Source: Candidatus Cloacimonadota bacterium (GTDB lineage: Bacteria > Cloacimonadota > Cloacimonadia > Cloacimonadales > JAMOQM01). From it: a stretch of 60,707 bases of DNA. Made by a program: the position numbers and the translations under genes. Location of the stretch: assembly GCA_027064005.1 (NCBI GenBank), contig JAMOQM010000027.1:1-60707 (forward strand), given 5' to 3'. A model generated the notes under the pieces. The model saw only the letters and a program-made list of their open reading frames with translations. It made no database searches and was not told the DNA's origin. Numbering within the stretch: the stretch's first letter is position 1; every line of letters begins with the position of its first letter. Below, one piece after another: positions 1-17,129 of this stretch.

Positions 1-1686
1 GATATAATTAATTTTAATCCTGAAAATTTTAGCGGTTCTATATTCTTATCAGATGATATTCCTATTCCGAATTGCATTTATTTAGATAATACGAATAATA
101 ATATTTTTAATGCTAATTTTGAACTACACTATAGAAACAATAATATAATTACAAATCAATATTTCCAAATTTCGAATAATAATTTTACTGACAAATTCAA
201 TAGTATTAAAGATAAAGTTGAAAAAGTTATTAATGATCAAAACAAGATCAATTATGTATTAATTAAACTTTTTTGGAAACAATCTCAAGGTGTATGGGAT
301 GAGATTTTGCATAAAGTAGAGGAAAGCATTAAAGATGAAAATATAGATCAATTCAAGTTAGTTGAACAATTAATTAATTTTAGTGAAATAATTAATGAAT
401 TTGATAATAGTAATATACAAAGCACCTCTGAAATAAACAGAGTCTTTTTTGATGTAATTCATAAAAAGAAAATTCTATCTGTTACAGAAATTCAACATCC
501 ATTAAATTTGTTAATAAAGTATAAAAAATATTTCATGAATAATACTAATTTGGTATTGCAATTATTAAAAAAAGTAGAAAGGTTGAAAACTTTAAAAGAA
601 TATGAAAAATTGTTTTCATTGTTTACAGGAATCAAATTGCAATCACAATGCTCTGAGTTTTTAGTTGAATTAATAAAATTACATATAAAAGAAAATTATA
701 AATTTATTGATAATAAATTATTTGAAAATATTATTAATACAACTAATTATAAATATTTAAAAAACATTGAAAAAGAAATTGAAAATTTTTATAAATTAGT
801 TATAAGTAAACTGCAACGCCCCAAATCATTTGAACAACTTACAGATATTTACAAAATTATAAATAAAAGTGAGTTTAAAGATATCATCAAAAATAGAACA
901 GATTTATCAAAAAATGTTTTCCCACTTTACGAACGATCCTACTTTACAGAAAATTTTTATAATCAGTTAAGAAATCAAAATAATTTTGAAATTGCATTAA
1001 AGAAGATGAAACAAGCTGATCTGAATTTAGTGAAAATCTTCAACAAATTTAATGAAAATATAAAAGAAAGTATTATTGATTTAATTGATGAAAATTCAAT
1101 TAAGATAACTTTGGTAAATTCTGATTCAATTAGCAAAATAGCAAAATTAGTGACTCAATGGATTAATAATTTCAATTCTATACAAGAATTGATTCCGTAT
1201 AATTCAAAATTAATTAAAATCAATGATAATATAAATACTATTAAATCTATTTTGAGGAAATATACAAATGATATTCCTCAGAAATTTTCAAAAGTTTACT
1301 TATTAGATACAAATGTTTTTATTGATAAACCTGACATATTGGATTTGTTTAACCAAAAAAGAGATTACATTTTACTCTCAAAAAAGGTTATTGATGAACT
1401 TGATAAATTTAAGATTTCAAAACAAGAATCACAAAAAGCAATAAAATCAATAAATACCAACAAAAGTAACAACAATATTGTATTTGAAGAATCTGATGTT
1501 ACGCTTTTACCCATCGCATATGATAAGAAAAATCCTGATAATCAGATTCTTTCTATTGCATTGAAATATAAACACTCCGATCCAATTATTATTACATCGG
1601 ATATAAATTTCCAAAATAAAGCTTTTGGTGAGAAAATTAAAGTTATGTCTTTAAAACAATTTTTAGCAAAAAGAAAAAGGGGGTAA
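1..1686 (+). CDS. Large hypothetical protein with a C-terminal PIN (YlaK/PhoH2-type) ribonuclease domain. The 5' end lies outside the window.
   Basis: Frame 1 is open from base 1 into the listed 307..1686 ORF, so the listed TTG start is a window-edge artefact. The last ~130 aa carry PIN-type blocks: VYLLDTNVFID, VIDELDKFK, NPDNQILSIAL, IIITSDINFQNKA. The rest is Asn/Lys-rich with no recognisable motif. Confidence 0.6.
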   Translation, partial: DIINFNPENFSGSIFLSDDIPIPNCIYLDNTNNNIFNANFELHYRNNNIITNQYFQISNNNFTDKFNSIKDKVEKVINDQNKINYVLIKLFWKQSQGVWDEILHKVEESIKDENIDQFKLVEQLINFSEIINEFDNSNIQSTSEINRVFFDVIHKKKILSVTEIQHPLNLLIKYKKYFMNNTNLVLQLLKKVERLKTLKEYEKLFSLFTGIKLQSQCSEFLVELIKLHIKENYKFIDNKLFENIINTTNYKYLKNIEKEIENFYKLVISKLQRPKSFEQLTDIYKIINKSEFKDIIKNRTDLSKNVFPLYERSYFTENFYNQLRNQNNFEIALKKMKQADLNLVKIFNKFNENIKESIIDLIDENSIKITLVNSDSISKIAKLVTQWINNFNSIQELIPYNSKLIKINDNINTIKSILRKYTNDIPQKFSKVYLLDTNVFIDKPDILDLFNQKRDYILLSKKVIDELDKFKISKQESQKAIKSINTNKSNNNIVFEESDVTLLPIAYDKKNPDNQILSIALKYKHSDPIIITSDINFQNKAFGEKIKVMSLKQFLAKRKRG

Positions 1687-1687
1687 T

Positions 1688-2812
1688 ATGAGCCGAAATG
1701 CAAGTCTGATTTATGAATTAGAGAGAAAAAGAAGAAGAGAATTATATCTAAAAAGAATTGAAGAAAACACTAAATATTATCTTGCAAAATATTCAGAAAT
1801 GTATAATGCATTCAGAAGAAGTGGTTACTATGATTTAATTCCTGATGAAATGAAACAGCTTAAAATTGATTTAAGTTTAATTAGAGAACAAGTAAATAAT
1901 GATATTGAAAGAGCAAATCAGATTTCTAAAAATGTTGGGGATTATATTTATAGTCTTAAAAGTATAGCTCACGAAGTAGAAATACAAGAAAAAGAAATTT
2001 CTATTAAAAGACAAGCAAGGCAACAAATTGAAAATCGGCTAAAGACAACTGAGATTACCAAACAATTAGACAAACTACTTTCTTCTATTTCAGATCCTAT
2101 TATTAGAGATTTTGCTTTTGATTTAAGCTGGGACATAAAAGAGAAATTAAAAAAATCACAGGATTCTGATTTTGAAAAAATACAGAATGAGTTTGAGACT
2201 ATTTTAAATGAAGCTAAAAAGAAGGCGAAAGAATGGAAAAATAGCAAAAAAGTAATAAACAAGAAACATTCAGTAAAAGAAAAAATCAAAATACAAATCG
2301 AAAGAATTGAAAAATCAAAGAAAGAAAACAGTGAAGAAATAGAAAAAATTCTCAAAAACCTGAAACAAGCCAAGAAGAGTATTGATAATACAAATATAAC
2401 GGATATAGAAGAAGTTGTTTTGGAAAATTCAAAAAAAGCAGAGGACGTAATTTTAGATGAAAGAATTAGACGAGAGACAGTAAAATCACTTTACAATATT
2501 CTTAATCAGCAAGGCTTTATTGTCTCAAAACCAAGAATTGATACAAAAGAGAATATAGTTATTTTATCTGCTAAAAAACCATCTGGAAATAAAGCAAATT
2601 GCAAAATCAAACTTGATGGTAAGTTTTCTTATGAATTCGATAATTATAAAGGTATGAGTTGTAATAAAGATATTGAGGATATGAAAAAACAATTAAATGA
2701 AATTTACGGTATAAAATTGAAGGATGAGCAAATAACTTGGGAAAATCCAAATAGAATTTACAAAGATGCAGAAAGTATGCTATCATCAAATACAAATGAA
2801 AACGGAAGGTGA
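1688..2812 (+). CDS. Coiled-coil protein of unknown function (374 aa)
   Basis: ATG lies 1 nt after the upstream stop and is preceded by AGGGGG. A long Lys/Glu-rich, heptad-like central region is followed by a ~110-aa globular C-terminus. No catalytic motif was recognised. Confidence 0.55.
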   Translation: MSRNASLIYELERKRRRELYLKRIEENTKYYLAKYSEMYNAFRRSGYYDLIPDEMKQLKIDLSLIREQVNNDIERANQISKNVGDYIYSLKSIAHEVEIQEKEISIKRQARQQIENRLKTTEITKQLDKLLSSISDPIIRDFAFDLSWDIKEKLKKSQDSDFEKIQNEFETILNEAKKKAKEWKNSKKVINKKHSVKEKIKIQIERIEKSKKENSEEIEKILKNLKQAKKSIDNTNITDIEEVVLENSKKAEDVILDERIRRETVKSLYNILNQQGFIVSKPRIDTKENIVILSAKKPSGNKANCKIKLDGKFSYEFDNYKGMSCNKDIEDMKKQLNEIYGIKLKDEQITWENPNRIYKDAESMLSSNTNENGR

Positions 2813-2814
2813 AT

Positions 2815-4713
2815 ATGAAAACTTATAAACCAAAATGGATTGATAACCTTGAAAGAGAAATTCAAATAAGAAAAGCAATTATCTTAAATGGCAATATAAA
2901 CGATCTTTATTATAATTCGCAGAAAGATTCCTATCATTCAATTATTAACATAATATCAAGTATTGGGAATAAATATTATGATAGAATTATTAATTGGGAT
3001 CAATTCAGTGGTGTTTCTGATAAAGAGGGCATTAAAGAATTAGAAAGTAGTTTTCAAAAAGAAGAAGATTCAAGCTCTGCTAATAATGATGAATACGATA
3101 TGGGAAATGATAGCTATAATGGCACACAATCATTAAAGAGATCTTATGATAAACCAGAAGATTTTTTCCCTTTAATTTATCACACTTTTGTTGAGGAAAG
3201 TGACAAAAATAAACTCTTCATTATTGATTTCTCTCAATATATTTTTAATAATTCAAACACATTACCTCAAGATGAAAGAAAATGGCTTAATATTTTAGAT
3301 AAAATTCTTCGATATTCGGATACAGATATTACAAATATTGATAAAAAATCAAATTCAATTATTTTCTTATTCAATGGTCAAAACAGTTTACCATATTCTT
3401 TAATCAATAACAATCCGTTAATTACTTCAATTTCAATTCCATTCCCTGAAAGAAAAGATAGAGCATTCTTCGTAAAAAAGTACCTAAACTATTTTAAATT
3501 TGATAAAGAGCTAAACCAAAATAATGAGAACGATAATATTGTTATTGATGATTTTATTGATTCATTAGATGGATTTTGCATTAGAGAGATCAAACAATTA
3601 GTTAAACTATCAAAAAAATATAAAGATAAAGACCAAAACTCTCTTAATCCTAAAAAACTTATAAATTTATTTAAATACGGAATAACCAGCAGTCCTTGGG
3701 AGGATTTATCAAAAGAAAAATTAAAGACAATTCAAGAAACTTTAAAGAAAAGAGTAAAAGGACAAGATGAAGCAATTGAAAAGGTAAAAGATGTTATTGT
3801 TCGTGCTTTTACTGGACTATCTGGTATTCATCATTCAGCAAAAAAAAGTAAACCAAAAGGAATCTTATTTTTTGTGGGTCCAACAGGTGTTGGCAAAACT
3901 GAATTAGCAAAAAGTTTAGCTGAATTTCTTTTTGGAGATGAAGAAGCTTGTCTGCGTTTTGATATGTCTGAATACAATCATGAGCATAGTGACCAAAGAC
4001 TTGTTGGTGCACCTCCTGGTTATGTTGGTTATGAGAGAGGTGGTCAACTAACCAATGCTGTTAAGGAAAAGCCTTTTTCAATTATTTTGTTTGATGAGAT
4101 TGAGAAAGCTCACGGCAAAATTTTGGATAAATTTCTCCAGATATTTGAAGATGGCAGGCTAACAGATGGTAAAGGCGAGACAGTATCATTTTCTGAAAGC
4201 ATAATAATTTTCACATCAAATATTGGAACAACTTCAGAAGCATCAGTAAATCAGCAAATTAAAAAGAAAATTGATATGAATTATGATGAACTAAAAAATT
4301 ATTTTATCGAAAAAGTAAATACTCATTTTTCTGCACCTGATTCTGAAGGTGGATTAGGTAGACCTGAACTTTTAAATAGGATTGGCGACAACATTGTAGT
4401 TTTTAATTATATAAAAAATGAAGATATCATGTTTGAAATTACAAAAGCAAAGTTAAAACCTTTATATGAGTTTATTAAAGAAAAATATAAAATGGAAATT
4501 TCTTTTGATGATGAAGAGAAATCTTTAAGAGCACTTATTAAAAAAGTAAATAAAGAACATGGAGGTAGAGGTATCCTTAATGTTATTGAACCTAAAATAA
4601 TTGATCCTTTAGCAGATTTTATTTTTGAGAACAGCGAAATTTTTTATCCAGGTAGAAAAATAATCATCTCACAAATTGCTAACAAAACTTTATTTGAATT
4701 TGAGTTAAAATAA
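2815..4713 (+). CDS. ClpA/ClpB-like AAA+ ATPase with a degenerate N-terminal AAA-like half and an intact Clp D2-type module
   Basis: Walker A FFVGPTGVGKTELAK; Walker B IILFDEIEKAH; GAPPGYVGYERGGQLT; sensor-1 IIIFTSN; GRPELLNRI; sensor-2-like GGRGILN. The N-terminal ~330 aa keep AAA-like strands (LFIIDFSQ, ISIPFPERKDR) but have no P-loop. An alternative GTG start at 2809 overlaps the upstream stop. Confidence 0.8.
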   Translation: MKTYKPKWIDNLEREIQIRKAIILNGNINDLYYNSQKDSYHSIINIISSIGNKYYDRIINWDQFSGVSDKEGIKELESSFQKEEDSSSANNDEYDMGNDSYNGTQSLKRSYDKPEDFFPLIYHTFVEESDKNKLFIIDFSQYIFNNSNTLPQDERKWLNILDKILRYSDTDITNIDKKSNSIIFLFNGQNSLPYSLINNNPLITSISIPFPERKDRAFFVKKYLNYFKFDKELNQNNENDNIVIDDFIDSLDGFCIREIKQLVKLSKKYKDKDQNSLNPKKLINLFKYGITSSPWEDLSKEKLKTIQETLKKRVKGQDEAIEKVKDVIVRAFTGLSGIHHSAKKSKPKGILFFVGPTGVGKTELAKSLAEFLFGDEEACLRFDMSEYNHEHSDQRLVGAPPGYVGYERGGQLTNAVKEKPFSIILFDEIEKAHGKILDKFLQIFEDGRLTDGKGETVSFSESIIIFTSNIGTTSEASVNQQIKKKIDMNYDELKNYFIEKVNTHFSAPDSEGGLGRPELLNRIGDNIVVFNYIKNEDIMFEITKAKLKPLYEFIKEKYKMEISFDDEEKSLRALIKKVNKEHGGRGILNVIEPKIIDPLADFIFENSEIFYPGRKIIISQIANKTLFEFELK

Positions 4714-4716
4714 TTT

Positions 4717-5298
4717 ATGTTAAAACTAAATATAGCAAATATTATTAATTGCACAGAAGTTGAAGGTCCTGGTAAAAGATTTGCCATTTGGGTTCAAGGA
4801 TGTTTGAAAAGATGCAAAGGATGTTGCAATCCTGAAATGTTAGATTTAAAATCAAATCAAATTATCAGCATTCATAATGTTATTAAGGAAATTCAAAAAG
4901 CTGTAATAAATTATGAGATTGAAGGTATTACATTTATCGGAGGTGAGCCATTTTTACAAGCAAAAGGTTTATCCGAAATTGCTAAATATTGCAGAAAAAA
5001 TAATTTATCAGTAATGATTTTTTCAGGTTATACCTTAAAAGAAATTCAAAATGGTGAATTTGAAGAGTCTCAGAAATTACTTGATAATTGTGATATTCTT
5101 GTTGATGGGGAATTTGAAATAAATAACCTTGATTATGAAAGAAATTGGATTGGCTCCAAAAATCAAAAAATTCACTATTTATCAGATTTTTATTCAAAAG
5201 GTATAGAGTATTCAAAAGAATTCAAAGAAGGTTTAGAGTTTAGAATAATGAAAAATAATATTCAGTTTAATGGAGACCCTATTGGCTGTGAGTTGTGA
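4717..5298 (+). CDS. NrdG-like radical-SAM activating enzyme (4Fe-4S single-cluster family), orphan: no glycyl-radical partner is visible
   Basis: N-terminal GPGKRFAIWVQGCLKRCKGCCNPE (CxxxCxxC cluster next to the GPG motif), GITFIGGEP, and DILVDGEF, as in anaerobic RNR activases. The start is 3 nt after the AAA+ stop. Confidence 0.75.
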   Translation: MLKLNIANIINCTEVEGPGKRFAIWVQGCLKRCKGCCNPEMLDLKSNQIISIHNVIKEIQKAVINYEIEGITFIGGEPFLQAKGLSEIAKYCRKNNLSVMIFSGYTLKEIQNGEFEESQKLLDNCDILVDGEFEINNLDYERNWIGSKNQKIHYLSDFYSKGIEYSKEFKEGLEFRIMKNNIQFNGDPIGCEL

Positions 5299-5431: not shown

Positions 5432-5551
5432 ATGGAATATTCAACACCTGAAGTAATTGCAGTAAGTCTTGATGATCAAGAAACAGTCGCTACTGCTTCG
5501 ATGTCTTGTGAAGATCCTGATGAAGATTGTAGTACATGGCGATGGAGTTAA
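5432..5551 (+). CDS. RiPP precursor peptide (39 aa, not in the ORF track): MEYSTPEVIAVSLDDQETVATASMSCEDPDEDCSTWRWS
   Basis: AGGAGG RBS at 5421-5426, then ATG at 5432. The acidic leader is followed by a C-terminal core with two Cys and a WRW motif. Its stop lies just before the radical-SAM/SPASM gene, and the maturase's listed ORF overlaps it. Confidence 0.65.
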   Translation: MEYSTPEVIAVSLDDQETVATASMSCEDPDEDCSTWRWS

Positions 5552-5556
5552 AAAAA

Positions 5557-7080
5557 ATGGGAGAAGAAAAATCTTCTCCCGTTTTAAATTATTCAAACAT
5601 ACTTGGAGAAATAAAAATGATGTTTAAATTAAGAAATGATTCTTTCATTCGGATTTTTGATAATTTTGGATATATTGTAAATCAACAAAAAAAGAATGAT
5701 AGAATTTATGATAAAATTGGAAGTATCTTCTTACAACAAATCTTGAGAGAACCACAAGAAATAATTACCGTTACAAAAAAAATTGTAGATAAATTTAACG
5801 ATGTTCCATTTAAGAAAGTTTATGCTGATTTTAAAAATTTTCTATCGGAGTTAGAGAGGAATTATTTTATATTGACTGCTAATTCTTTGAATGAACTTAA
5901 CAAAAAAGAAGCCAACCATGAAGAAAATATTGATAACTTCTCGAATAAGTCATTGATTGGATCCAAAAGTCCTAAACTTGAAAGCACTAAAACTTTCTTA
6001 AATAAGTATTTTTTTACAAATCCTACAGTTTTTGCTCTTCAAATAGAATTAACAACATTTTGTAATGAACATTGTTTGCATTGTTATATTCCGCAAAAAT
6101 ATAGAAATACATTACTCACTTATAAGAGTATTTGTGGTATCCTAGATCAAGCAAGAGATATGCAAACTCTTGCTGTATCCTTTTCAGGTGGCGAACCAAT
6201 GTCTCATCCTGATTTTATTAAGATATTAGAGTATGCGAGAGAAAAAGATTTTTCTATTACTATCTTAAGCAATTTGACATTATTAAATACAGAAATTTTA
6301 GAAACGTTGAAAAGAATTAATGTTAACCAAATACAAGTCTCATTATATTCAATGACACCAAAAATCCATGATTCTATTACAAAGATTGCGGGCTCTTTTA
6401 GTAAAACCTATAATGCTATTAAATCATTAATCAAAAATAATATTCCTCTTCGAATTAGCTGTCCATTAACAAAACTCAACTACATATCTTACAAAGAAGT
6501 ATTACAATTTGGGCAAAAAAACAATATTAAAGTTGATACAGATTTTACTATTATGGCAAGATCCGATTATAGTACAGACAACCTTCAATTCAGATTGACT
6601 TCAGAAGAAATTCAGACAGTATTACATGATATTTTTATTTATAACAGCAAATACACACAATCTTTACTGAAATACAAACCTTATTCTGTTGAAGAAAAGC
6701 AACAAGATAACGAACGGCCACTTTGTGGTGTTGGATTTAATAAAATTGCTATATCTAGTTCAGGAAATGTCATTCCTTGTGCAGGATGGCACAACCTTAA
6801 ACTAGGGCATATTGGTGATGATAAACTTTTAGATATTTGGACTAATTCTTTTCATTTAAATAATATTAGAAAGTTAAAACAAAAAGACTTTTCAGAATGC
6901 GTTAATTGTGAAGCAAAGAAATACTGTTCTATATGTCTATTAAGAAATTTTAATGAATATAATGGAGATATGTTAAAGTTTAATAAAATTCAGTGTGAGG
7001 TAGCATTTCAGACAATGAATACTGCAAAAGAATTATTTTTTGATAAAAATATTCATTTTGAAGAGCGACTGGACATGTAA
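5557..7080 (+). CDS. Radical-SAM/SPASM peptide maturase with an N-terminal PqqD-like RiPP-recognition (RRE) region
   Basis: Radical-SAM motif ELTTFCNEHCLHCY plus SFSGGEP. SPASM signature CGVGFNKIAISSSGNVIPC ... CVNCEAKKYCSIC ... CEVAF. The N-terminal FKLRNDSFIRIFDNFGYIVNQ is PqqD-like. The listed start at 5536 overlaps the precursor. ATG 5557 and ATG 5617 both follow a GGAG. Confidence 0.85.
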   Translation: MGEEKSSPVLNYSNILGEIKMMFKLRNDSFIRIFDNFGYIVNQQKKNDRIYDKIGSIFLQQILREPQEIITVTKKIVDKFNDVPFKKVYADFKNFLSELERNYFILTANSLNELNKKEANHEENIDNFSNKSLIGSKSPKLESTKTFLNKYFFTNPTVFALQIELTTFCNEHCLHCYIPQKYRNTLLTYKSICGILDQARDMQTLAVSFSGGEPMSHPDFIKILEYAREKDFSITILSNLTLLNTEILETLKRINVNQIQVSLYSMTPKIHDSITKIAGSFSKTYNAIKSLIKNNIPLRISCPLTKLNYISYKEVLQFGQKNNIKVDTDFTIMARSDYSTDNLQFRLTSEEIQTVLHDIFIYNSKYTQSLLKYKPYSVEEKQQDNERPLCGVGFNKIAISSSGNVIPCAGWHNLKLGHIGDDKLLDIWTNSFHLNNIRKLKQKDFSECVNCEAKKYCSICLLRNFNEYNGDMLKFNKIQCEVAFQTMNTAKELFFDKNIHFEERLDM

Positions 7081-7222: not shown

Positions 7223-10102
7223 ATGAAAAGAATTTACTTAAATACAATTATGGGGATACAATTTTTATTATTATGTTCGCAACTATTTTCTATCACATTT
7301 GCCGAGCGACAAATTGTTGACTTTCCTAATATTACAAATCCCAATTTCACTATTTCGTGTGATTTGGATAATAATGGATTTTCTGATGCAATTTCAGCTT
7401 CTCTTGATAATAAGCTTGTTTGGTTTCCTAGAACGAATAGCCAAATTGATGATAGTATTGAGGAAGAAATTGTAATTGCTGAACTTCCTGCGAATATGGG
7501 TGAAGTTACAGAAATTAAATGTGCTGATTTTGATGATGATGATGATTTGGATCTTTTAGTTGCTTCGGAATCTAAGTTATATTTAGTTGAAAATATAGAT
7601 AGTTGCGATAGTTTTGTTTTGCATTTGATACAATCATTTGAGACAGAAGTAAAGCAAAATTTTGATATTGGAGACTACAATTCCGATGGCTTAACAGATT
7701 TTATTTTAGCACGAGGAGAAGAAGAATCTACAATTAATATTTTTTTGAATACAAATAATTTAACTTTTTCACAAACACAAATTGCAGGAAATGGTATTCC
7801 GCTTGTAATATCTTATGATAAAGATAATGATGGAGATTTGGATTTGTTTGCAAATTGCAATGGATTCAATTATTTGGAAAATGTTGGTGGAGATTCGTTA
7901 TTTGTAATCACTGACACTCTTTCTACTGAAATGAAAAATGCTCAAATTATTGATTTTGACAATGATGGCAATATTGATATTGCCGGAATAATTAATGATG
8001 AAGAATTACATTTTGGCTGGATTGAAAACAATGATGATTCTTTCTCGGAATTTGAGATTTTATTTATTCCTGAACCATTTACTCAAATGAAAATTGTCAA
8101 TTCAGATTCAGATGATGATTACGAGATTTTCTTTATCAAAAATGTCGATTTATTTTATTATGACTACATTTCTGAAAATAATTATGAATTTGTTGATATT
8201 GGCATTTATACATCCACATTTGTTAATGACAGCTATGTTTCTTTTTTTGATTTTGCTGATTTTGATAATGATAACGATATTGACATTTTAATTTCATTTT
8301 CCGGAGGGGAATTTAATTTTGATCATAGATTTTTGGGTATTTGTGAAAATGTGAACGGTTTGTTTGGGAATGAGCATATTTTTAACCCTAGCTTTACACA
8401 ATCACCAATAGTTACATCTTTTGATATAGATTGTGATTCTGATTTGGATTTACTCATGGTAAATGGACAAAATATTTATTGGTCTAGAAAAAACGGTGCT
8501 GAATTTGACAAAGTCAAGATTTTGTATCATGCAGAAGATATTGTGAGATGGATTACGATAAGGGATATAAATTTTGACGGAAAATCTGATATTATTCTTA
8601 TGTTTGAAGATTATCCTTCAGATGGAGATTATAAAGTTTTGCTTAATAATTCTGATGGAGAAACAGATTTTTCTCTTCAACCTTTGAATAATATAGGAAT
8701 TGAGTATTCCAAAAGTTACGATTTCATTGATTTGGATCAGGATAATGACCTTGATTTTATCTGCATCAAAGGTGAAAACAACCGGCTTTATTGGAGTGAA
8801 AATCTTGGAAATTATACTTTTGGGAATTCAGAACTTTTATTACCGAATCAAGAACATATTGTTCGCTTTAAATTCACCGATATAGATAATGATGGAGATT
8901 TAGATTTATTAGCCGGAACCGAATTTAATTATAGTAACCGTTTTATATTTATTGCTACAAATAATAATTTAAATTTTACTATAACAACCAATTTTCCTGA
9001 ATTACCAGCCAGACCAAAAGCATTCTACTATGAGGATTTGGATAATGATGGAAATTATGAACTAATCGTTCATGTAGATGGATATAGTGAAATGCTTTAT
9101 ATCTATAAGAACATTTCTGATAATTTTCAAGATTATGAACTTTACATTTTGAATACGAACACAAACTGGGCTCATGGAATTAGGATGATAAGATTTGCAG
9201 ATTTGGATAATGATGGAGATAAAGATCTAATTGCAGGAAGAAGTTACTATGAAGAACAATATTCCGAATTAGCAATTTTGGTTTGGACAAATAATCAATC
9301 CGAATCATACTTTGATGAAAGCCATTTAGCTTATCCGCTTTATCATGAAAGAGCTATAGGTCTAAGGTATATAAATATTGCCGATTATAATAGCGATGGT
9401 AAACAAGATATTTTTTGCTATATTTATCGCCAATGGGATGAATTTTCTCAAAGTGAGTGGGATTATTATCTAAATACATCAACTTCTTTCCAAAACTTCC
9501 CAAGTTCGTTTGAATTGATGTTTCCACAAAATTATGCTGAAAATTTACCTACAAGACCCGAATTTATTTGGACAGCTTCAACAGATAACGATCCTAACGA
9601 CTTTGTCGAATATCAAATTGAAATTGCAACTGATAGCTTATTCAATGAAATTGTATTTTCCGAAAGTGAAATCAGTGATACACTTTTTATCATGCCAAAT
9701 AATTTGAGTACCAATACTCAGTATTTTTGGAGAGTAATCGCAGAAGATACTACAGGAAATCAAGCTATATCGGATTTTTTCACATTTTCAACAGGAAATG
9801 TTACTTCAAATTCTGAAGAAATAATTCTGACAAAAACAGAATTAAAAGGTAATTATCCAAATCCATTCAACCCAACTACAACAATAAAATTTTCAGTTAA
9901 AAAGAATGAGGTTGGAAAATTATCTATTTACAATGTAAAAGGGCAAATTGTAAAAACATTCGCTGAATTTTCCGAAGGTGACCATTCGGTTATTTGGAAT
10001 GGGAAGAATAATCATGGAGAAGAAGTTAGCTCCGGAATTTTCTTCTATAAACTTCAAACCAAATTTTATCAGAAAATAAAGAAAATGATTCTGTTGAAAT
10101 GA
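7223..10102 (+). CDS. Secreted FG-GAP/VCBS-repeat protein with an Fn3-like module and a T9SS C-terminal sorting domain
   Basis: AGGAGG RBS and a signal peptide. At least 12 Ca-binding-like DxDxDG repeats (ADFDDDDDLDLL, YDKDNDGDLDLF, TDIDNDGDLDLL and others). C-terminal GNYPNPFNPTTTIKF...GIFFYKL...KKMILLK. Confidence 0.85.
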   Translation: MKRIYLNTIMGIQFLLLCSQLFSITFAERQIVDFPNITNPNFTISCDLDNNGFSDAISASLDNKLVWFPRTNSQIDDSIEEEIVIAELPANMGEVTEIKCADFDDDDDLDLLVASESKLYLVENIDSCDSFVLHLIQSFETEVKQNFDIGDYNSDGLTDFILARGEEESTINIFLNTNNLTFSQTQIAGNGIPLVISYDKDNDGDLDLFANCNGFNYLENVGGDSLFVITDTLSTEMKNAQIIDFDNDGNIDIAGIINDEELHFGWIENNDDSFSEFEILFIPEPFTQMKIVNSDSDDDYEIFFIKNVDLFYYDYISENNYEFVDIGIYTSTFVNDSYVSFFDFADFDNDNDIDILISFSGGEFNFDHRFLGICENVNGLFGNEHIFNPSFTQSPIVTSFDIDCDSDLDLLMVNGQNIYWSRKNGAEFDKVKILYHAEDIVRWITIRDINFDGKSDIILMFEDYPSDGDYKVLLNNSDGETDFSLQPLNNIGIEYSKSYDFIDLDQDNDLDFICIKGENNRLYWSENLGNYTFGNSELLLPNQEHIVRFKFTDIDNDGDLDLLAGTEFNYSNRFIFIATNNNLNFTITTNFPELPARPKAFYYEDLDNDGNYELIVHVDGYSEMLYIYKNISDNFQDYELYILNTNTNWAHGIRMIRFADLDNDGDKDLIAGRSYYEEQYSELAILVWTNNQSESYFDESHLAYPLYHERAIGLRYINIADYNSDGKQDIFCYIYRQWDEFSQSEWDYYLNTSTSFQNFPSSFELMFPQNYAENLPTRPEFIWTASTDNDPNDFVEYQIEIATDSLFNEIVFSESEISDTLFIMPNNLSTNTQYFWRVIAEDTTGNQAISDFFTFSTGNVTSNSEEIILTKTELKGNYPNPFNPTTTIKFSVKKNEVGKLSIYNVKGQIVKTFAEFSEGDHSVIWNGKNNHGEEVSSGIFFYKLQTKFYQKIKKMILLK

Positions 10103-10160
10103 TTGGGGTAACAAAGCAATCCAAGCCCAATGAGCCAACAGGTTCTCAACTGTCCGATTC
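10103..10160 (+). repeat. Possible degenerate fifth copy (E) of the intergenic element
   Basis: GGGGTAACAAAGCAATCC..GCC...TCCGATTC resembles the 5' half and 3' tail of copy B. It lacks the GTGG-loop-CCAC hairpin. It sits directly after the FG-GAP gene stop. Confidence 0.25.
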
Positions 10161-10409
10161 AGATGTTGATGATATGGAAATTTTTTTTGATAATATGATT
10201 TAACTTTTGATTTACCCTCTGCTGCTGCATCTGTTATAAAAAATCGAGCAACAAATGAAGGAAAGAATGAATACTAAAAGGTGGTAGAATTTTAGATGAT
10301 TACGAATAAATGATGTTGTAATAATACCCCAAATTTCTTTTATTTGACATAAATTAAGTTTTCAAAGTTATGTTAAGAAGTTTTAAAATAATTATGAAAG
10401 GATTGAATA

Positions 10410-11237
10410 ATGAAAAGTAAAAAGATAAATGTGCAAGATATTGAAATAAATATAACTTCAATAAATGATGAAGATTACATTTCACTAACAGATATGTTAA
10501 AAGCTAAAGATGGTGATTTTTTTATTTCTGATTGGCTTAGAAATAGAAATACTGTTGAATTTCTTGGCATTTGGGAACGTATCTATAATCCAAATTTTAA
10601 TTATGGCGAATATGCCACAATTAGAAATCAGGCAGGCTTGAATAGTTACAAAATCAGTGTAAAAGAATGGACTGCTAAAACGAATGCAATTGGTCTAAAA
10701 GCAAAAGCCGGGCGATATGGCGGAACTTACGCTCATAAAGATATAGCATTTGAATTTGGTATGTGGATCAGTCCGGAGTTCAAGATATATTTAATCAAAG
10801 AATTTCAACGTTTAAAAGAACAAGAACAAAAACAACTCGGTTGGGATATTAAACGTAATCTAACTAAGATCAATTACAGAATTCATACAGATGCAATAAA
10901 AGAAAATCTAATTCCAAAAGAATTAACGGTAAAGCAAATGAGTATTATTTATGCAACAGAAGCTGATATTTTAAATATGGCTCTTTTCGGTAAAACAGCA
11001 AAACAATGGCGGGATGAGAATCCAAATAAAAAGGGAAATATCAGAGATTATGCCAATATTTCTCAATTAATATGCCTTTCTAATCTTGAAAATTTGAATG
11101 CACATTTTATCTACGAATCAATTGATCAAAGTGAAAGACTTAAGAAATTAAATTTAATAGCAATTTATCAAATGAAACTTTTGGTATTAGATAAAAACGT
11201 TGAAAAGCTTGAGATACAATCGAAAACTAAAAAGTAA
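10410..11237 (+). CDS. KilA-N domain DNA-binding protein
   Basis: ISLTDM...WLRNRNTVEFLGIWE...GRYGGTYAHKDIAFEFGMWISPEFKIYLIKEFQRLK is the conserved KilA-N family core common in FCB bacteria and their mobile elements. Confidence 0.8.
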   Translation: MKSKKINVQDIEINITSINDEDYISLTDMLKAKDGDFFISDWLRNRNTVEFLGIWERIYNPNFNYGEYATIRNQAGLNSYKISVKEWTAKTNAIGLKAKAGRYGGTYAHKDIAFEFGMWISPEFKIYLIKEFQRLKEQEQKQLGWDIKRNLTKINYRIHTDAIKENLIPKELTVKQMSIIYATEADILNMALFGKTAKQWRDENPNKKGNIRDYANISQLICLSNLENLNAHFIYESIDQSERLKKLNLIAIYQMKLLVLDKNVEKLEIQSKTKK

Positions 11238-11256
11238 TTATTGATTTAATGTTGTG

Positions 11257-11337
11257 AATAAGTCTGTAACACATTTACTCGCCAAGCAAGAAGAAACGCA
11301 AGATGAACGTGGCAGTGTCCGCCATTGCACCTATTTA
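11257..11337 (+). repeat. Copy C of the recurrent structured intergenic element (long form)
   Basis: AATAAGTCTGTAACACA ... GCCAAGCAAGAAGAAACGCAAGATGAACGTGGCAGTGTCCGCCATTGCACCTATTT. Same boxes and end complementarity as copies A, B and D. Confidence 0.55.
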
Positions 11338-11395
11338 AAGCAAACTTGTCATCCCCCCGATATTTTTCAAACAACACAAGCAAATTGTGTAGTAG

Positions 11396-11459
11396 AACAA
11401 TCTGCCAGATTGTTAAATAAATCCGCAAATTACCAAGTAGCACAATCTGCCAGATTGTT
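11396..11459 (+). repeat. Two copies of a ~35-nt direct repeat, each holding the palindrome ACAATCT-GCC-AGATTGT, spaced 45 nt apart
   Basis: Palindromes at 11397-11413 and 11442-11458. The flanks also repeat (GTAG.ACAATCTGCCAGATTGTT.A.TAATCC). Confidence 0.7.
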
Positions 11460-11494
11460 TATTAATCCTCAACCTGTTAAAATATTCTTTGATA

Positions 11495-11540
11495 GTAGAG
11501 ACGCCCAATTTGGGCGTCTCTACTATTTCGATTTTTTTTG
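11495..11540 (+). terminator. Rho-independent terminator
   Basis: Perfect 13-bp stem GTAGAGACGCCCA / TGGGCGTCTCTAC with loop ATT, followed by a T-rich tail (TATTTCGATTTTTTTT). Confidence 0.75.
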
Positions 11541-11623
11541 GGAGAATGGAAGTTTGAAACAAAAATCTTGACCTAGAATTCGGAGAAAAATGAATGAAGA
11601 AAAATATTCGGAATTGAGGGATT

Positions 11624-12673
11624 ATGGAAAAATATGAAGAATTATATAATAAAGTGAGTAAAATTGTAAATCCGGTTTATCTTGTTGGCGGATCTGTTCG
11701 GGATATTTTATTAGGAAGAGAACCAAAAGATTATGATTTTACAACGCCTATTTTTCCTGATGAAATCGAAAAATTGGTGCGAGCTGCCGGGAAAAGAGCT
11801 TATCTTATTGGTAAAAAATTTGGGACGATTGGTTGCAAGATAGATGGTGAATTTGTTGAAATAACAACTTTCAGACAGGAACAATATTCTAAAAATAATC
11901 GAAAACCGCAAGTTGATTTTGTTCAAAATATAGAAAATGATTTAAAACGTCGAGATTTTACAATTAATGCTATGGCTTGGAAAAATGGTGATTTAATTGA
12001 CTTGTTTGACGGGCAAAAAGATTTGAAAAATAAGATGATTCGAAGTGTCGGAAATCCTCAAGAAAGAATTAAAGAAGATCCACTCAGAATGTTAAGATGT
12101 GCCAGATTTATGTCTCAATTGAATTTTGAAGTCGAACCTAATTTGGAAGAAAAAATAAAGGAAAATTCTTTTAGGATTTTGTTTATCAGTCGTGAACGTT
12201 GGATGATGGAGTTGGATAAAATTTTGCTTTCTGAAAATCCCGAAATCGGGCTAAATTTTATGATGAAAAATAGGCTGTTTAACTATATCATCCCGGAATT
12301 ATCGTTACAATACAAATATGATCAAAACAGCCCTTACCATGATTTTGATTTGTGGATTCATACGCTAAAAACCGTTATGGCAACTCCAAAAGATATTATT
12401 TTAAGATGGGCTGCCCTGTTGCATGATATTGGAAAGCCATTTGTAAGAACAGATAAAACCGACCGAAGCAATTATATTCATCACGCTTTGTTGGGAGCGG
12501 AAATTGCCGATAAAATCGCTTATCAACTAAAATGGTCAAAAGATAGAAAAAAAGCTGTTCTTGAAATTGTGAAAAATCATTTGGATAAAGATTCGCCATT
12601 GAAAAAATATGATGATGTCTCAAAAAAGAATAAATTTCAAGTTCAAACAGGTGAATCTCAAAATAAACTATAA
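11624..12673 (+). CDS. cca: tRNA nucleotidyltransferase (CCA-adding enzyme / poly(A) polymerase family) with an HD domain
   Basis: GGSVRDILLGREPKDYDFTT, RRDFTINAMA, EDPLRMLRCARF, and the HD region LLHDIGKP. Confidence 0.8.
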   Translation: MEKYEELYNKVSKIVNPVYLVGGSVRDILLGREPKDYDFTTPIFPDEIEKLVRAAGKRAYLIGKKFGTIGCKIDGEFVEITTFRQEQYSKNNRKPQVDFVQNIENDLKRRDFTINAMAWKNGDLIDLFDGQKDLKNKMIRSVGNPQERIKEDPLRMLRCARFMSQLNFEVEPNLEEKIKENSFRILFISRERWMMELDKILLSENPEIGLNFMMKNRLFNYIIPELSLQYKYDQNSPYHDFDLWIHTLKTVMATPKDIILRWAALLHDIGKPFVRTDKTDRSNYIHHALLGAEIADKIAYQLKWSKDRKKAVLEIVKNHLDKDSPLKKYDDVSKKNKFQVQTGESQNKL

Positions 12674-12929
12674 AATCTATCTTTGAATTAATAATGACGG
12701 TTTCGCAAGAAGTTATAAATCCTTGCAATCTGTTATCTTAACCAAATGTGCCGGAAAAAGATATTTTATTCCAATAGATTCTAAGAAATAATTTTTATAA
12801 ATGCTAATCTGCAAATTTTTTACCTTTAACATTCTATCCAACTTTCCGTAAAGATTCCGTTTTACTGTTTTTCAATAGAAAAATTATAGGGAATGTAATT
12901 ATTTTATTGACAATATAAATCTCGATTAT

Positions 12930-12953
12930 TTGTTGTCATAAAAAATACAACAA
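12930..12953 (+). promoter_or_regulatory. Inverted repeat TTGTTGT-N10-ACAACAA just upstream of the TrmB-family gene (possible operator)
   Basis: Perfect 7-bp arms ending 10 nt before ATG 12964. A TTGACA lies about 20 nt upstream. Confidence 0.25.
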
Positions 12954-12963
12954 GTGAGATGAA

Positions 12964-13788
12964 ATGGAAAAGTTTATTGGAAAGTTAGAGAAAATTGGTT
13001 TTTCAAAGAACGAATCGATAGTTTATTGTAACCTGCTGAGAAATCAGTGTTTTACGGCTACTGAGATTGCTAAAATATCAAATATTGGTAGATCGAGAGT
13101 TTATGAGATATTAGCTTCTTTGGTTAGTAAAGGAGTTGTTTTTGAAAGACAAGGAAAAGTTAGAAAATACGAAGCAATTAATCCTGAAAATGCTTTTACT
13201 TCTATTATCGATTCAGAAAAAAAACGCATTGAGATGATGTCAAAACTTAAAGATGAATTAATCCCGTATTTTCAAAATAAAAAGGAAGATCCTTCGCCAT
13301 TGGATTTTATCGAAGTTTATAGTACCGGGAAAACCATCTTTAATCGTTATGAAGAGCTTGAATACGCTTCACAAGAATTTGTCTATTCATTTTGTAAAGC
13401 ACCTTATGTAATGGATACTGACTCTGTTTATATAAATGATGCCCAAATGGAATCTATGAGCCGAGGTGTAAAATATAAATCAATTTATGAGCCCGGTGAA
13501 AGAGATTTTAGAACTTTTATTAAACAAATGGAATATGATATTGAAATGGGTGAGGAAATTAGGATTATGGAAACTTTGCCGATTAAAATGCATATTTATG
13601 ACGAGAAAGCAGTGATGTTTTCCATGATAAATAAAATCAATCCGGAAATGAATCTTACCTATATGGTTGTTCAACATTCCGATTTGGCAAGAACACTTTT
13701 GGGAACTTTCGAATATTATTGGGAGAAAGCAATGAAATTTGAAGATTACTTAAAAAAAATAAAAAAAAAGAATAAATCGGTTTCTTAA
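12964..13788 (+). CDS. TrmB-family transcriptional regulator
   Basis: The N-terminal winged helix LEKIGFSKNESIVYCNLL...TATEIAKISNIGRSRVYEILASLVSKGVV is typical of TrmB. It has a TrmB-type C-terminal extension. Confidence 0.75.
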   Translation: MEKFIGKLEKIGFSKNESIVYCNLLRNQCFTATEIAKISNIGRSRVYEILASLVSKGVVFERQGKVRKYEAINPENAFTSIIDSEKKRIEMMSKLKDELIPYFQNKKEDPSPLDFIEVYSTGKTIFNRYEELEYASQEFVYSFCKAPYVMDTDSVYINDAQMESMSRGVKYKSIYEPGERDFRTFIKQMEYDIEMGEEIRIMETLPIKMHIYDEKAVMFSMINKINPEMNLTYMVVQHSDLARTLLGTFEYYWEKAMKFEDYLKKIKKKNKSVS

Positions 13789-13834
13789 AATTGGACTGGT
13801 TATTGCATAAAGAAATAAAAAGTTGGAGGAATAA

Positions 13835-15550
13835 TTGAGAAAAATTTCACTATTACTAATAATGCTTATCAGTATGTCATTATTTGCCGGAGAACAAAAG
13901 AAAGCTGAAGTAAAAGTTACAGCTCAAATTGTCGGAAATAAAATTGTCGCAAGCTACCAAATTCCTGAGGGAATGCACATTACGCTTCAAAAAGATTATT
14001 TATACGTTGATGCTGATAGTGTTGACTGGTTAAAACTGGAACCTACAATTTATCCAAAAGGCGTTAAAGATGCTGATGGTGATATAGTTTATCATGGTCA
14101 AATGAAATTGACCAGACAGTTTACATTCCTAAAAAAATATACAGATTCCAGACCATTAAAAATATTTGCCGGTTTCCAAGCTTGTCTTGATTCCGGAACT
14201 TGTATGTTTCCTGATGAAAAAGAATTTACTTTGAATATCAAATATGATAAAAAATATGATATCAATAATGTCCCTGCGGAAAATGAGAAACCACTTCCAG
14301 CCAAAAAAGCTCCAATTAGTGCTGTTCTAAAATATTTATTAATGGCATTTCTCGGTGGTATAATTCTTAATGTGATGCCATGCGTTTTACCAGTGTTATC
14401 AATTAAAGCAATGAGCTTGGTTAAACAAAGTCATCAAGATAAAAAAGAAATTCTGAAAGGTTCTTTGATGTACACTGCCGGAATTATAGTTTCATTTATT
14501 GTAATGGCATCAGTTGTTATTTTCCTAAAAATTTCCGGTGAAATGGTGGGATGGGGATTCCAATTCCAATCACCCGGATTTGTAATGGCTCTATTAATTA
14601 TGATTTTTGTGTTTGCTCTTTCAATGTTTGACGTCTTAATTTTTAATGCTCCCGGAATGAATAAAGCGACTCAAGCTTCGCAAAAACAGGGACATTGGGG
14701 TTCTTTTTTAAGTGGGATTTTTGCGGTATTATTAGCCACTCCTTGTACTGCGCCGATGTTGGGAGCTGCTTTAGGTTTTGCATTTACCCAACCACCTTTG
14801 ATGATTTTAGCGATTTTTATTTTGATAGGTTTAGGTTTGGCATTGCCATTTTTATTAATTGGTTTCTGGCCGGCTGCAATAAAAATTATTCCTCGTCCGG
14901 GCGAATGGATGAATGTTTTCAAAGAAGTAATGGGATTTTTATTATTTGCTACCGCTTTATTCCTTTTAAGAACCTTATATTTCTTAGTTGGTGGAGATGG
15001 GACTTTTAATATTTTATGGTTTTTGCTTATTTTATCTTTTTCTGCTTGGATGTTCGGACGTTGGACTCGCCCGCATATCCCTCATAAAAAACAATGGGTA
15101 ATGGCAATTTTGGCTGTTTTAATTTCAGTATTTGCCGGGATGTTCTTATTGAGATTTAACGATTCTTCTTCAAATAAAACCGAAATGGTTTCTTCAACGA
15201 AAGGCAATTGGGGAGTTTTTTCTCCTGAAAAAGTTCAGGAATTAAGAGATGCCGGGAAACCTGTGTTTATTGATTTTGGTGCCGAATGGTGTATGACTTG
15301 TAAAACAAACGAAAAAGTTGTGCTTTATACTGATGAAATTCAAAAAGCTTTTAGAGATCATAATGTTGTCTTGTTGAGAGGAGATAATACAAAACGTGAT
15401 CCGATTATAAACGAGTGGTTACGTAAATTCAAAAGAGCCGGAGTTCCTTTATATATAATGTATATTCCCGGTAAAGACGAACCGGAAGTTCTACCTGAGT
15501 TGATTACCAAAGATATGGTTCTTAATATGCTCAAGAAATTGGATAAATAG
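13835..15550 (+). CDS. dsbD: Thiol:disulfide interchange protein DsbD (membrane electron transporter with a C-terminal thioredoxin domain)
   Basis: Signal peptide plus an N-terminal periplasmic domain. The TM core has the two conserved Cys (NVMPCVLPVLS and LATPCTAPMLG). The C-terminal Trx fold is FGAEWCMTCKTNE. TTG start with a GGAGG RBS. Confidence 0.85.
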   Translation: MRKISLLLIMLISMSLFAGEQKKAEVKVTAQIVGNKIVASYQIPEGMHITLQKDYLYVDADSVDWLKLEPTIYPKGVKDADGDIVYHGQMKLTRQFTFLKKYTDSRPLKIFAGFQACLDSGTCMFPDEKEFTLNIKYDKKYDINNVPAENEKPLPAKKAPISAVLKYLLMAFLGGIILNVMPCVLPVLSIKAMSLVKQSHQDKKEILKGSLMYTAGIIVSFIVMASVVIFLKISGEMVGWGFQFQSPGFVMALLIMIFVFALSMFDVLIFNAPGMNKATQASQKQGHWGSFLSGIFAVLLATPCTAPMLGAALGFAFTQPPLMILAIFILIGLGLALPFLLIGFWPAAIKIIPRPGEWMNVFKEVMGFLLFATALFLLRTLYFLVGGDGTFNILWFLLILSFSAWMFGRWTRPHIPHKKQWVMAILAVLISVFAGMFLLRFNDSSSNKTEMVSSTKGNWGVFSPEKVQELRDAGKPVFIDFGAEWCMTCKTNEKVVLYTDEIQKAFRDHNVVLLRGDNTKRDPIINEWLRKFKRAGVPLYIMYIPGKDEPEVLPELITKDMVLNMLKKLDK

Positions 15551-15558
15551 AGGATTTT

Positions 15559-16623: not shown

Positions 16624-16626
16624 AAA

Positions 16627-17118
16627 ATGAATTTTAGAAAGATTATACTTGTAGCAGGGTTATTTATATTATTGATAAATTTGAGTGCGATTGACAAAGC
16701 TCCGGAATTCAAATTAAAAAATATGAAAGGGGAATGGGTTAATCTCTCACAAAAAATTGATAAACATTTTGTCATTCTTGATTTTTGGGCAAGCTTTTGT
16801 GCTCCTTGCAAAAAAGAACTTCCCGGTTTGAATAAAATTGATAAAAAACATAATGATATCAATGTACTTGCTGTTTGTACCGATAGACCGAGAACTCAAA
16901 ATAAGGCAAAAGCTTTTATCAAATCAAACAGATTTTCTTTTGAGACATTGTTTGATTCCAGAGGGAAAGTTCGCAAATTATTTAACGTTGTTGATATTCC
17001 TCATACTGTAGTTATTGCTCCAAATGGCGAAATTGTTACAGTTCATACAGGTTATAAACGTGGCGATGAAAAACATCTTCTTCTCGAAATAGAGAAATGG
17101 AAAAAAGCACACAAATAG
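16627..17118 (+). CDS. TlpA/ResA-like periplasmic thiol-disulfide oxidoreductase
   Basis: Signal peptide. DFWASFCAPCKKELP (AhpC/TSA-Redoxin family). Confidence 0.85.
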   Translation: MNFRKIILVAGLFILLINLSAIDKAPEFKLKNMKGEWVNLSQKIDKHFVILDFWASFCAPCKKELPGLNKIDKKHNDINVLAVCTDRPRTQNKAKAFIKSNRFSFETLFDSRGKVRKLFNVVDIPHTVVIAPNGEIVTVHTGYKRGDEKHLLLEIEKWKKAHK

Positions 17119-17129
17119 AGAGGAATTTG

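Follow-up and report, generated by a model that had tools for sequence, protein, structure and literature searches.

A five-gene operon pairing a Mokosh-related helicase and a PIN-domain protein with a Clp-like ATPase and an NrdG-family radical-SAM protein, a candidate bacterial defence system

We analysed a 60,707-nt stretch of DNA from Candidatus Cloacimonadota bacterium (contig JAMOQM010000027.1 of assembly GCA_027064005.1), hereafter referred to as the window, which begins with an operon encoding a PIN-domain protein, a coiled-coil protein, a Clp/Hsp100-like AAA+ protein and an NrdG-family radical S-adenosylmethionine (SAM) protein. Positions 1-5298 carry four closely packed open reading frames (ORFs) on the + strand, with the boundaries that an earlier note on this DNA had assigned to them (Table 1). 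The PIN frame is open from base 1 and reaches its stop codon at 1684-1686, meaning that the 5′ end of this gene is cut by the window edge. A single base separates this stop from the start of the coiled-coil gene, which has the ribosome-binding site (RBS) AAAGGGGG. The AAA+ gene starts with an ATG at 2815, two bases past the coiled-coil stop, and is preceded by the RBS GGAAGG. A GTG at 2809, overlapping the coiled-coil stop, is an alternative start that would give a protein of 634 aa; gene callers chose the start at 2815 (632 aa), and an exact-sequence look-up with the 634-aa version returned no match. Three bases lie between the AAA+ stop and the start of the radical-SAM gene. The RBSs are purine-rich and located within the 3′ end of the preceding gene. 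Because stops and starts are only 1-3 nt apart and each RBS lies inside the gene before it, the arrangement fits co-transcription and translational coupling of the window genes, in line with how the earlier note had read the junctions. The guanine-plus-cytosine (GC) content of the operon is 25.6%, compared with 32.0% for the remainder of the window.

The earlier note had described a four-gene operon and suspected that more components lay upstream. An exact-sequence look-up with the radical-SAM protein led to a near-identical 12.8-kb contig (locus L002 in our numbering) that reaches further upstream. Here, the full-length PIN protein has 879 aa and a helicase gene ends 4 nt upstream of the PIN gene, with only ~75 nt of contig remaining upstream of the helicase gene. 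The unit consists of five genes, encoding the helicase, PIN, coiled-coil, AAA+ and radical-SAM proteins (genes 1 to 5), and the window holds the last four. The suspicion of an upstream component was correct and the four genes of the window stand as described, but the size of the unit is revised from four genes to five.

Table 1. Genes of the operon present in the window (positions are those of the window).
Feature	Position	Strand	Basis
Gene 2 (PIN protein), 3′ part	1-1686	+	561 of 879 codons present; open frame and PIN_4 match
Gene 3 (coiled-coil protein, 374 aa)	1688-2812	+	AlphaFold2 model; no library family
Gene 4 (two-tier Clp/Hsp100-like AAA+ protein, 632 aa)	2815-4713	+	AAA_2 and ClpB matches, Foldseek
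Gene 5 (NrdG-family radical-SAM protein, 193 aa)	4717-5298	+	Fer4_12, Radical_SAM and NrdG TIGR02491 matches

Using the coiled-coil protein as a family-specific marker, we identified 35 loci in species-representative genomes and 80 in metagenomes, and scored gene order with hidden Markov models built from the five proteins. Every sufficiently long contig among these ~115 loci has the order helicase, PIN, coiled-coil, AAA+, radical-SAM on one strand, and three neighbourhoods of AAA+ relatives carry the same genes. An order shared by ~115 loci is far more than chance would produce. The hosts are distributed patchily over Firmicutes, Beta-, Gamma- and Deltaproteobacteria, Campylobacter, Planctomycetota, Acholeplasmataceae and Treponemataceae. 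They include Lachnospiraceae, Ruminococcus, Monoglobus, Phascolarctobacterium, Massilia, Duganella, Neisseria and Vibrio, as well as Pseudoalteromonas, Colwellia, Endozoicomonas, Desulfobacteraceae, Gemmataceae and Thermogutta. The operon is also found on 10 plasmids, 7 of them conjugative; on the Acinetobacter pNDM1 plasmid and the Moellerella plasmids its genes have only generic RefSeq product names. Outside this genome, the window genes thus stay together with their order unchanged, both on plasmids and in phyla unrelated to one another, and the lack of co-occurrence that the earlier note had named as a refutation was not seen. A phage origin was considered and ruled out, as the operon was found in 0 of 50,697 phage genomes and as one fragment among the 2.9 million viral contigs of IMG/VR. 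Clustered at 50% identity, the coiled-coil family accounts for 486 clusters in a set of 1.84 billion representatives; it is real but uncommon.

Some loci depart from the complete set. A few Planctomycetota carry the coiled-coil, AAA+ and radical-SAM genes without the helicase or PIN gene. In one permuted locus, from a Thermoguttaceae metagenome-assembled genome (L026, 9218-20504), the coiled-coil, AAA+ and radical-SAM genes come first and are followed by a vWA gene, a second vWA-like gene, a PP2C phosphatase, a Ser/Thr kinase, a Upf1-like helicase and a gene resembling the N-terminus of gene 2; the trio of vWA, phosphatase and kinase resembles the TerY-P defence triad. Because variants without PIN, without helicase and with permuted order exist, genes 3-5 are the constant core of the operon and the nucleic-acid arm is modular.

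Gene 1, which lies outside the window, encodes in L002 a 1,508-aa Upf1-like superfamily 1 (SF1) helicase with AAA_11 and AAA_12 domains, both of which are present in all 28 helicases scanned. Walker A, Walker B and the remaining SF1 motifs are invariant in the family, and in the window's own lineage the helicase also bears an S1 RNA-binding domain according to precomputed Pfam matches. The L002 helicase matches the PADLOC MkoA model with an E-value of 6e-110 (profile positions 521-1097 of 1112), and two other helicases match it with E-values of 2e-105 (L005) and 1.5e-96 (L021). On this profile similarity, the helicase is assigned to the MkoA family of Mokosh. Mokosh type I, composed of the MkoA helicase and the MkoB phospholipase D (PLD) nuclease, is a validated anti-phage defence system (Millman et al. 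2022). The operon resembles Mokosh in having an MkoA-family helicase with a nuclease gene directly after it. It differs in that the nuclease is of the PIN_4 type instead of the PLD-type MkoB, and in that the Ser/Thr kinase fused to MkoA is absent (no Pkinase domain in any of the 28 helicases scanned), a separate kinase gene being present only in the variant L026. The coiled-coil, AAA+ and radical-SAM genes have no Mokosh counterpart. The earlier note could match its genes to no named system. This holds for the set, for which we found no name in PADLOC 2.0, NCBIfam 20, Pfam or RefSeq product names and no description in a full-text literature search that did not reach subscription-only papers, but not for the helicase, which falls within a named defence family.

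Gene 2 has the PIN domain that the earlier note had recognised in a large protein. The PIN_4 match (E-value 3e-15) lies at the C-terminus and corresponds to ~nt 1297-1653 of the window, with the codon of the first catalytic Asp at about nt 1306-1308. In a 70-member alignment (879-aa numbering), the acidic residues D754, E784 and D831 are conserved in 67, 69 and 68 sequences, respectively, and a fourth, D852, was seen by eye in most of the printed rows, so that the alignment suggested in the earlier note finds the catalytic residues in place. Upstream of PIN_4 is an N-terminal and middle region of ~650 aa that falls into no specific family of PADLOC, Pfam or NCBIfam. A Pfam scan of the gene 2 family returned PIN_4 in 25 of 30 proteins and no other domain, and the scanned proteins had zero matches in PADLOC. 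Of the 94 loci with sufficient upstream sequence, 75 have a detected PIN domain just ahead of the coiled-coil gene; some of the 19 PIN-negative loci, for example Moellerella, are false negatives. Gene 2 is shorter and has no PIN domain in Planctomycetota and a Campylobacter-like group.

Eukaryotic nonsense-mediated decay pairs the Upf1 helicase with the SMG6 PIN endonuclease. Genes 1 and 2 likewise encode a Upf1-family helicase and a PIN_4-type endonuclease, although this is a likeness by analogy only. The bacterial proteins differ in their large N-terminal regions, which are unrelated, and in having three further partners. From the parallels with Upf1 and SMG6 and with the Mokosh helicase and PLD nuclease, the helicase and PIN protein would make up an arm for recognising and cutting nucleic acid. 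Its target would probably be phage RNA or replication intermediates that contain RNA. The Upf1/SMG6 analogy would equally suit a cellular RNA quality-control or stress-response machine with no role in conflict, in which the helicase and PIN protein turn over RNA while the chaperone handles proteins. The S1 RNA-binding domain on the helicase of the window's lineage fits such a machine, as does the fact that ClpB-type modules are classically stress chaperones. However, the rarity and patchiness of the family, with its 486 clusters, its presence on plasmids and its atypical GC content are at odds with housekeeping systems, which are vertically inherited and widespread, and we consider this explanation highly unlikely.

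Gene 3 has no family in Pfam or NCBIfam and no specific family in PADLOC. The AlphaFold2 model of the protein (predicted local distance difference test score, pLDDT, of 79) has helices over residues 3-274, and strands and a helix over residues 283-340. The strongest conservation in the family is found in a small alpha+beta domain (~aa 275-340) and in the tail that follows it (aa 340-360), which is predicted to be disordered. Residues invariant in 29 sequences include G300, G311, Y315, F317, Y320, G322, C325, Y340, N353 and P354, whereas the pLDDT falls below 50 at residues 320-325 and 340-374. Being strongly conserved yet modelled with low confidence, the loop containing G322 and the tail look like contact surfaces. 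A PDB profile search with the alignment of the family matched designed helical bundles alone, with E-values of at least 0.03. A Foldseek search with the AlphaFold2 model gave no match at an E-value of 0.001 or below, the best being the spermine-synthase N-domain at 0.07. A match to MkoC (5e-5) was rejected as a coiled-coil artefact.

Gene 4 encodes an atypical member of the Clp/Hsp100 fold class. It matches AAA_2 (E-value 5e-49), ClpB_D2-small, the ClpB model (2.6e-82 over aa 301-622) and, in a profile search of the PDB, the second AAA+ tier (D2) of ClpC and ClpB (1e-60). The D2 tier and its small domain (~aa 290-632) are intact and ClpB/ClpC-like. Walker A (GPTGVGKT), Walker B (DEIEK), the pore loop GYVG, the sensor-1 Asn and the Arg residues of D2 are invariant in 42 sequences. 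The first, D1-like tier (~aa 1-290, nt 2815-3684) has the strand and helix order of the AAA+ core in the AlphaFold2 model and gives weak profile matches to classical AAA proteins. At the position of Walker A it carries GNxxD (consensus xIIxxGNxxDx), without the Lys-Thr pair, in 25 of 25 sequences. The model (pLDDT 81) aligns to both tiers of ClpC, ClpB and ClpA with a Foldseek E-value of 7e-33 over ~670 columns. Alignment and structure thus confirm the earlier note's observation of a P-loop missing from the N-terminal AAA half, and from its sequence the first tier appears unable to bind ATP in the usual way. Alongside the shared fold, D2 motifs and D2 small domain, the protein differs from ClpA, ClpB and ClpC in lacking the D1 Walker A and in having neither an N-domain nor an M-domain (the model begins at the D1 core), with a separate coiled-coil protein encoded just upstream. 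In the model, no coiled coil is inserted in the D1 small domain (aa 238-290), and no ClpP-docking IG[FL] tripeptide was seen in D2 when the sequence was read by eye. An acidic linker rich in Ser, Asp and Glu (residues 83-108, window 3060-3140), variable in length and modelled with low confidence, lies within the degenerate D1 and terminates in a conserved Y-D-x-G motif. Full-length relatives with 46-56% identity are found in Neobacillus, Paenibacillus urinalis, Faecalibacterium wellingii, Planctomycetota and many metagenomes.

Some defence systems contain ClpB-like ATPases, as shown by DolB of Dodola (DolA, a DUF6414 protein, with DolB) and PDC-M37B of the PADLOC candidate PDC-M37. Gene 4 matches DolB (1.7e-25, aa 283-480) and PDC-M37B (1e-30) over the generic ClpB D2 region only. 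Among the scanned window proteins there was no PADLOC match to DolA or PDC-M37A and no DUF6414 in the Pfam scans, and Dodola and PDC-M37 themselves have no radical-SAM protein, helicase or PIN protein.

Gene 5 matches Fer4_12 (E-value 1e-37) and Radical_SAM (8e-9). Its best NCBIfam match is NrdG TIGR02491, with 109 bits against a cutoff of 126, while the PFLA model scores 76 bits. As the TIGR02491 score is below the cutoff, gene 5 is classed by sequence as a relative of the NrdG family and not as an equivalog. The nearest solved structure is PflA (3C8F, 1.4e-11), and identity to an E. coli NrdG sequence that was not drawn from a database record is 28% over the whole length. The protein contains the cluster motif CxxxCxGCC, GGEP and EGPGKR. 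C29, C33, C36, G75-G76-E77 and EGPGKR are kept in 90% or more of the 35 gene 5 sequences compared, and the NrdG-like C-terminal block DILVDG...W.GS.NQ is retained. Activases hold the glycine loop of their substrate with a (D/E/N)GPGxR-type motif such as EGPGKR. Gene 5 resembles the activases of the NrdG/NrdD and PflA/PflB pairs over its full length, in the CxxxCxxC, GGE and (D/E/N)GPGxR motifs and in its small partial-barrel size. It differs from them in scoring below the NrdG cutoff, in a family-specific C-terminal extension of ~38 aa, in the lack of a linked glycyl-radical enzyme and in always adjoining an AAA+ unfoldase gene.

The earlier note had remarked on an NrdG-like activase with no glycyl-radical enzyme nearby, and the window as a whole agrees: no ORF resembling NrdD, pyruvate formate-lyase (PFL) or ribonucleotide reductase (RNR), and no RVxGY motif, was found in its 60.7 kb. 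Across the family, an NrdD-like gene is nearby in 5 of ~84 loci with downstream sequence, each time with its own separate NrdG, so linkage to nrdD, pfl or housekeeping clp genes is not consistent. The YG at residues 340-341 of the coiled-coil protein was considered as a glycyl-radical site and rejected, as it is YS in a large clade. Comparison with viperins gave only generic matches of gene 5 to pVip models (E-values 2e-7 to 3e-6, 25-30 bits) and 29 bits against a cutoff of 180 for NCBIfam viperin_w_prok.

Flanking ORFs of 30 loci match integrases, recombinases (including serine recombinases), type III CRISPR-Cas, HEC-05, DrmD, WYL proteins, viperin models and the viperin-associated kinase VakA, and transposases and ArdA also adjoin the operon. 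Ten Neisseria loci share an identical set of neighbours. The Acholeplasmataceae locus lies between serine-recombinase-like ORFs and a gene that looks, by eye, like a DUF262-type gene. This flanking content, the mobility of the operon and its patchy distribution lend support to the defence or conflict module proposed in the earlier note. On this comparative evidence, a role in conflict or defence is the best-supported reading and a reasonably probable one. More specifically, the horizontally mobile five-gene operon is most likely an anti-phage or anti-plasmid defence system, with a likelihood that we place somewhat better than even. We rate it as a variant of helicase-plus-nuclease defence whose unfoldase/radical-activase module has no described counterpart.

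The same mobility could also indicate a selfish module that serves the maintenance or competition of mobile elements, by addiction or exclusion, with the PIN protein as its toxin. The conjugative plasmids, the adjoining integrases, recombinases, transposases and ArdA, and the status of PIN domains as classic toxins are consistent with this. But five large genes with two motors are unlike the architecture of toxin-antitoxin systems, the helicase is from a validated anti-phage family, many copies are chromosomal with stable flanks (such as the 10 Neisseria loci), and the PIN domain is dispensable in some lineages. We consider a selfish module distinctly unlikely.

Within a defence system, genes 3-5 would act as a second, physically coupled arm, one that is kept by loci lacking the helicase and PIN genes. 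In the simplest model, the coiled-coil protein would be the scaffold or adaptor of the AAA+ protein, which itself carries neither an N-domain nor an M-domain for substrate recognition. The AAA+ protein itself would be a ring-forming, ClpB-type machine that threads polypeptides and is powered by the D2 tier alone. Relatives of the activase need a substrate loop that is pulled from a folded protein. In the operon, the activase, with SAM and a [4Fe-4S] cluster, may remove a hydrogen atom from a loop or tail that the unfoldase exposes in a protein. Its substrate could be a component of the system or a phage protein, and the reaction would either switch on the nuclease arm or disable the target. 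In the coiled-coil protein, the invariant Y-E/K-G322-x-x-C325 loop and the conserved tail are candidate sites for this chemistry. That the coiled-coil, AAA+ and radical-SAM proteins form an immune module in which the unfoldase presents a polypeptide and protein radical chemistry is the signal or the killing step is a possibility that we put forward tentatively. It would then be the first case of an NrdG/PflA-type activase outside metabolism and of an unfoldase-dependent radical-SAM enzyme.

Several points weigh against defence or against the proposed chemistry. The flanks make the picture of a defence island, but one that is a description drawn without a background comparison. PADLOC 2.0 has no models for genes 2, 3 and 5 beyond generic radical-SAM matches to viperin models. 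The PIN domain is missing in some lineages and so cannot serve as the effector everywhere. The sequences show no evident target of the classical glycyl-radical kind, as no RVxGY motif was found in any of the five protein families in a survey of all glycines with at least 80-90% conservation in their family. Many hosts, such as Acinetobacter, Massilia and Neisseria, are strict aerobes. Stable glycyl radicals are destroyed by oxygen, so a glycyl-radical mechanism is weakened by these hosts.

The last three of these points count against a classical glycyl-radical mechanism and lead to a serious rival, which retains the defence role but has the NrdG-like enzyme act on a nucleotide or nucleic acid, perhaps to produce a modified nucleotide or to mark RNA or DNA in the manner of viperin and QueE, leaving the AAA+ and coiled-coil pair with a separate regulatory or remodelling role. 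Partner proteins without a glycyl-radical motif and hosts that are strict aerobes fit this explanation. Nucleotide-chemistry cassettes also follow the operon repeatedly (a pVip-like protein with a kinase, NrdD- or RNR-like proteins with a VakA-like kinase, and Ophion-like genes), and gene 5 has weak matches to QueE and viperin models. Those matches are far weaker (E-values of 1e-3 to 1e-7) than the NrdG/PflA-like resemblance, which spans the whole length of gene 5 and includes EGPGKR and the DILVDG...W.GS.NQ block, and the conserved five genes include no nucleotide kinase or other nucleotide-handling gene. Like pVip and OpnA, gene 5 is a radical-SAM enzyme in a putative defence system, and cassettes similar to theirs adjoin the operon; unlike them, it is from the activase (NrdG/PflA) branch and not the viperin/OpnA branch. 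Overall, we view a nucleotide substrate as fairly unlikely.

The neighbouring cassettes are of several types. In L012 (13680-16403), and with the same layout in L050, L057 and L102, the operon is directly followed by an NrdG of ~155 aa and an NrdD-like enzyme of 545-565 aa with an RRVSGYL loop and a Zn ribbon. In L023 (1284-3373) the NrdG and NrdD-like cassette is upstream of the operon and no kinase was seen. A kinase of the thymidylate-kinase fold (with matches to PADLOC VakA and PDC-M51B) was seen beside the pair in L012 and L050 only. By analogy with viperin and its kinase, the cassette of NrdG, NrdD-like enzyme and kinase may be a defence module that makes nucleotide analogues. Another type pairs an RNR-like protein of 533-543 aa, which matches Ribonuc_red_lgC (8e-60, the class I/II barrel) and has no match in PADLOC, with a thymidylate-kinase-like gene that follows it. 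This pair comes directly after the operon in the Firmicute Neobacillus (L004, 12578-14789) and the gammaproteobacterium Pseudoalteromonas (L025, 13740-15935); in L096, the kinase copy is on the other side of the operon.

Radical-SAM genes are found in three further types of neighbourhood. In L013 (6262-8638), L075 and L090, a 342-aa radical-SAM protein, a PHP protein and a third gene are encoded directly downstream, the first two of them Ophion-like. In the published anti-jumbo-phage system Ophion, OpnA is a radical-SAM protein, OpnB a PHP protein and OpnC a phosphoribosyltransferase. PDC-M37 and Ophion were both considered as the identity of the operon and rejected, as they are different systems. 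On the Acinetobacter plasmid pNDM1_010055 (L044, 12178-14160), an NDM-1 plasmid to judge by its name, the operon is directly followed by a VakA-like kinase (173 aa), a viperin-like radical-SAM protein (328 aa; 1e-11 against the pVip model) and a gene for a hypothetical protein of 162 aa. In five proteobacterial loci (L019, L031, L040, L076 and L109), an operon on the opposite strand lies just past the end and contains a radical-SAM/SPASM protein (343 aa), a JmjC protein and one or two more genes.

Downstream of the operon in the window, 134 nt after gene 5, is a pair of + strand genes composed of a 39-aa ORF (MEYSTPEVIAVSLDDQETVATASMSCEDPDEDCSTWRWS, 5432-5551), which has a strong RBS (AAAGGAGG) and overlaps the start of the next gene, and a 514-aa radical-SAM/SPASM gene (5536-7080). 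From its sequence, the pair looks like a precursor peptide and its maturase, as in pathways for ribosomally synthesised and post-translationally modified peptides (RiPPs). The SPASM gene was rejected as a member of the operon, since it is found with the operon only in the window's lineage and has its own precursor-like ORF. Further along, at positions 7223-11237, are genes for a KilA-N-domain protein and for an FG-GAP-repeat protein of 959 aa; the latter has a Por_Secre_tail match (the sorting signal of type IX secretion), which points to a host in the Bacteroidota/FCB group. Given the SPASM gene and its peptide ORF, and with NrdG as the best NCBIfam match of gene 5, the window genes could be imagined as housekeeping genes adjacent by chance (nrdG and a Clp chaperone) or as part of a RiPP pathway with the SPASM enzyme. 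This is barely credible and already largely refuted by the comparative data, as the five genes occur together across phyla while the SPASM/peptide pair is restricted to the window's lineage, and as the NrdG score is below its cutoff and the 60.7 kb hold no nrdD or pfl.

If the operon is defensive, it would add to bacterial immunity a widespread five-gene system, present in several phyla, on plasmids and in a few hundred sequence clusters. This system would join a Mokosh-related helicase/nuclease arm to a chemistry not seen before in immunity, that of an activase of the glycyl-radical-forming type, always paired with a Clp-type unfoldase. Cultured hosts carry the operon on an Acinetobacter plasmid, on Moellerella plasmids and on the chromosomes of Neobacillus, Paenibacillus urinalis and Neisseria; among these copies are those of Acinetobacter sp. 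WCHA55 plasmid NZ_CP032284 (record 8532-18251), Moellerella plasmid NZ_CP093250 and Neobacillus CP133267. The identity of the substrate of the activase would show whether protein radical chemistry serves as an immune signal or weapon, and may reveal a new enzyme activity.

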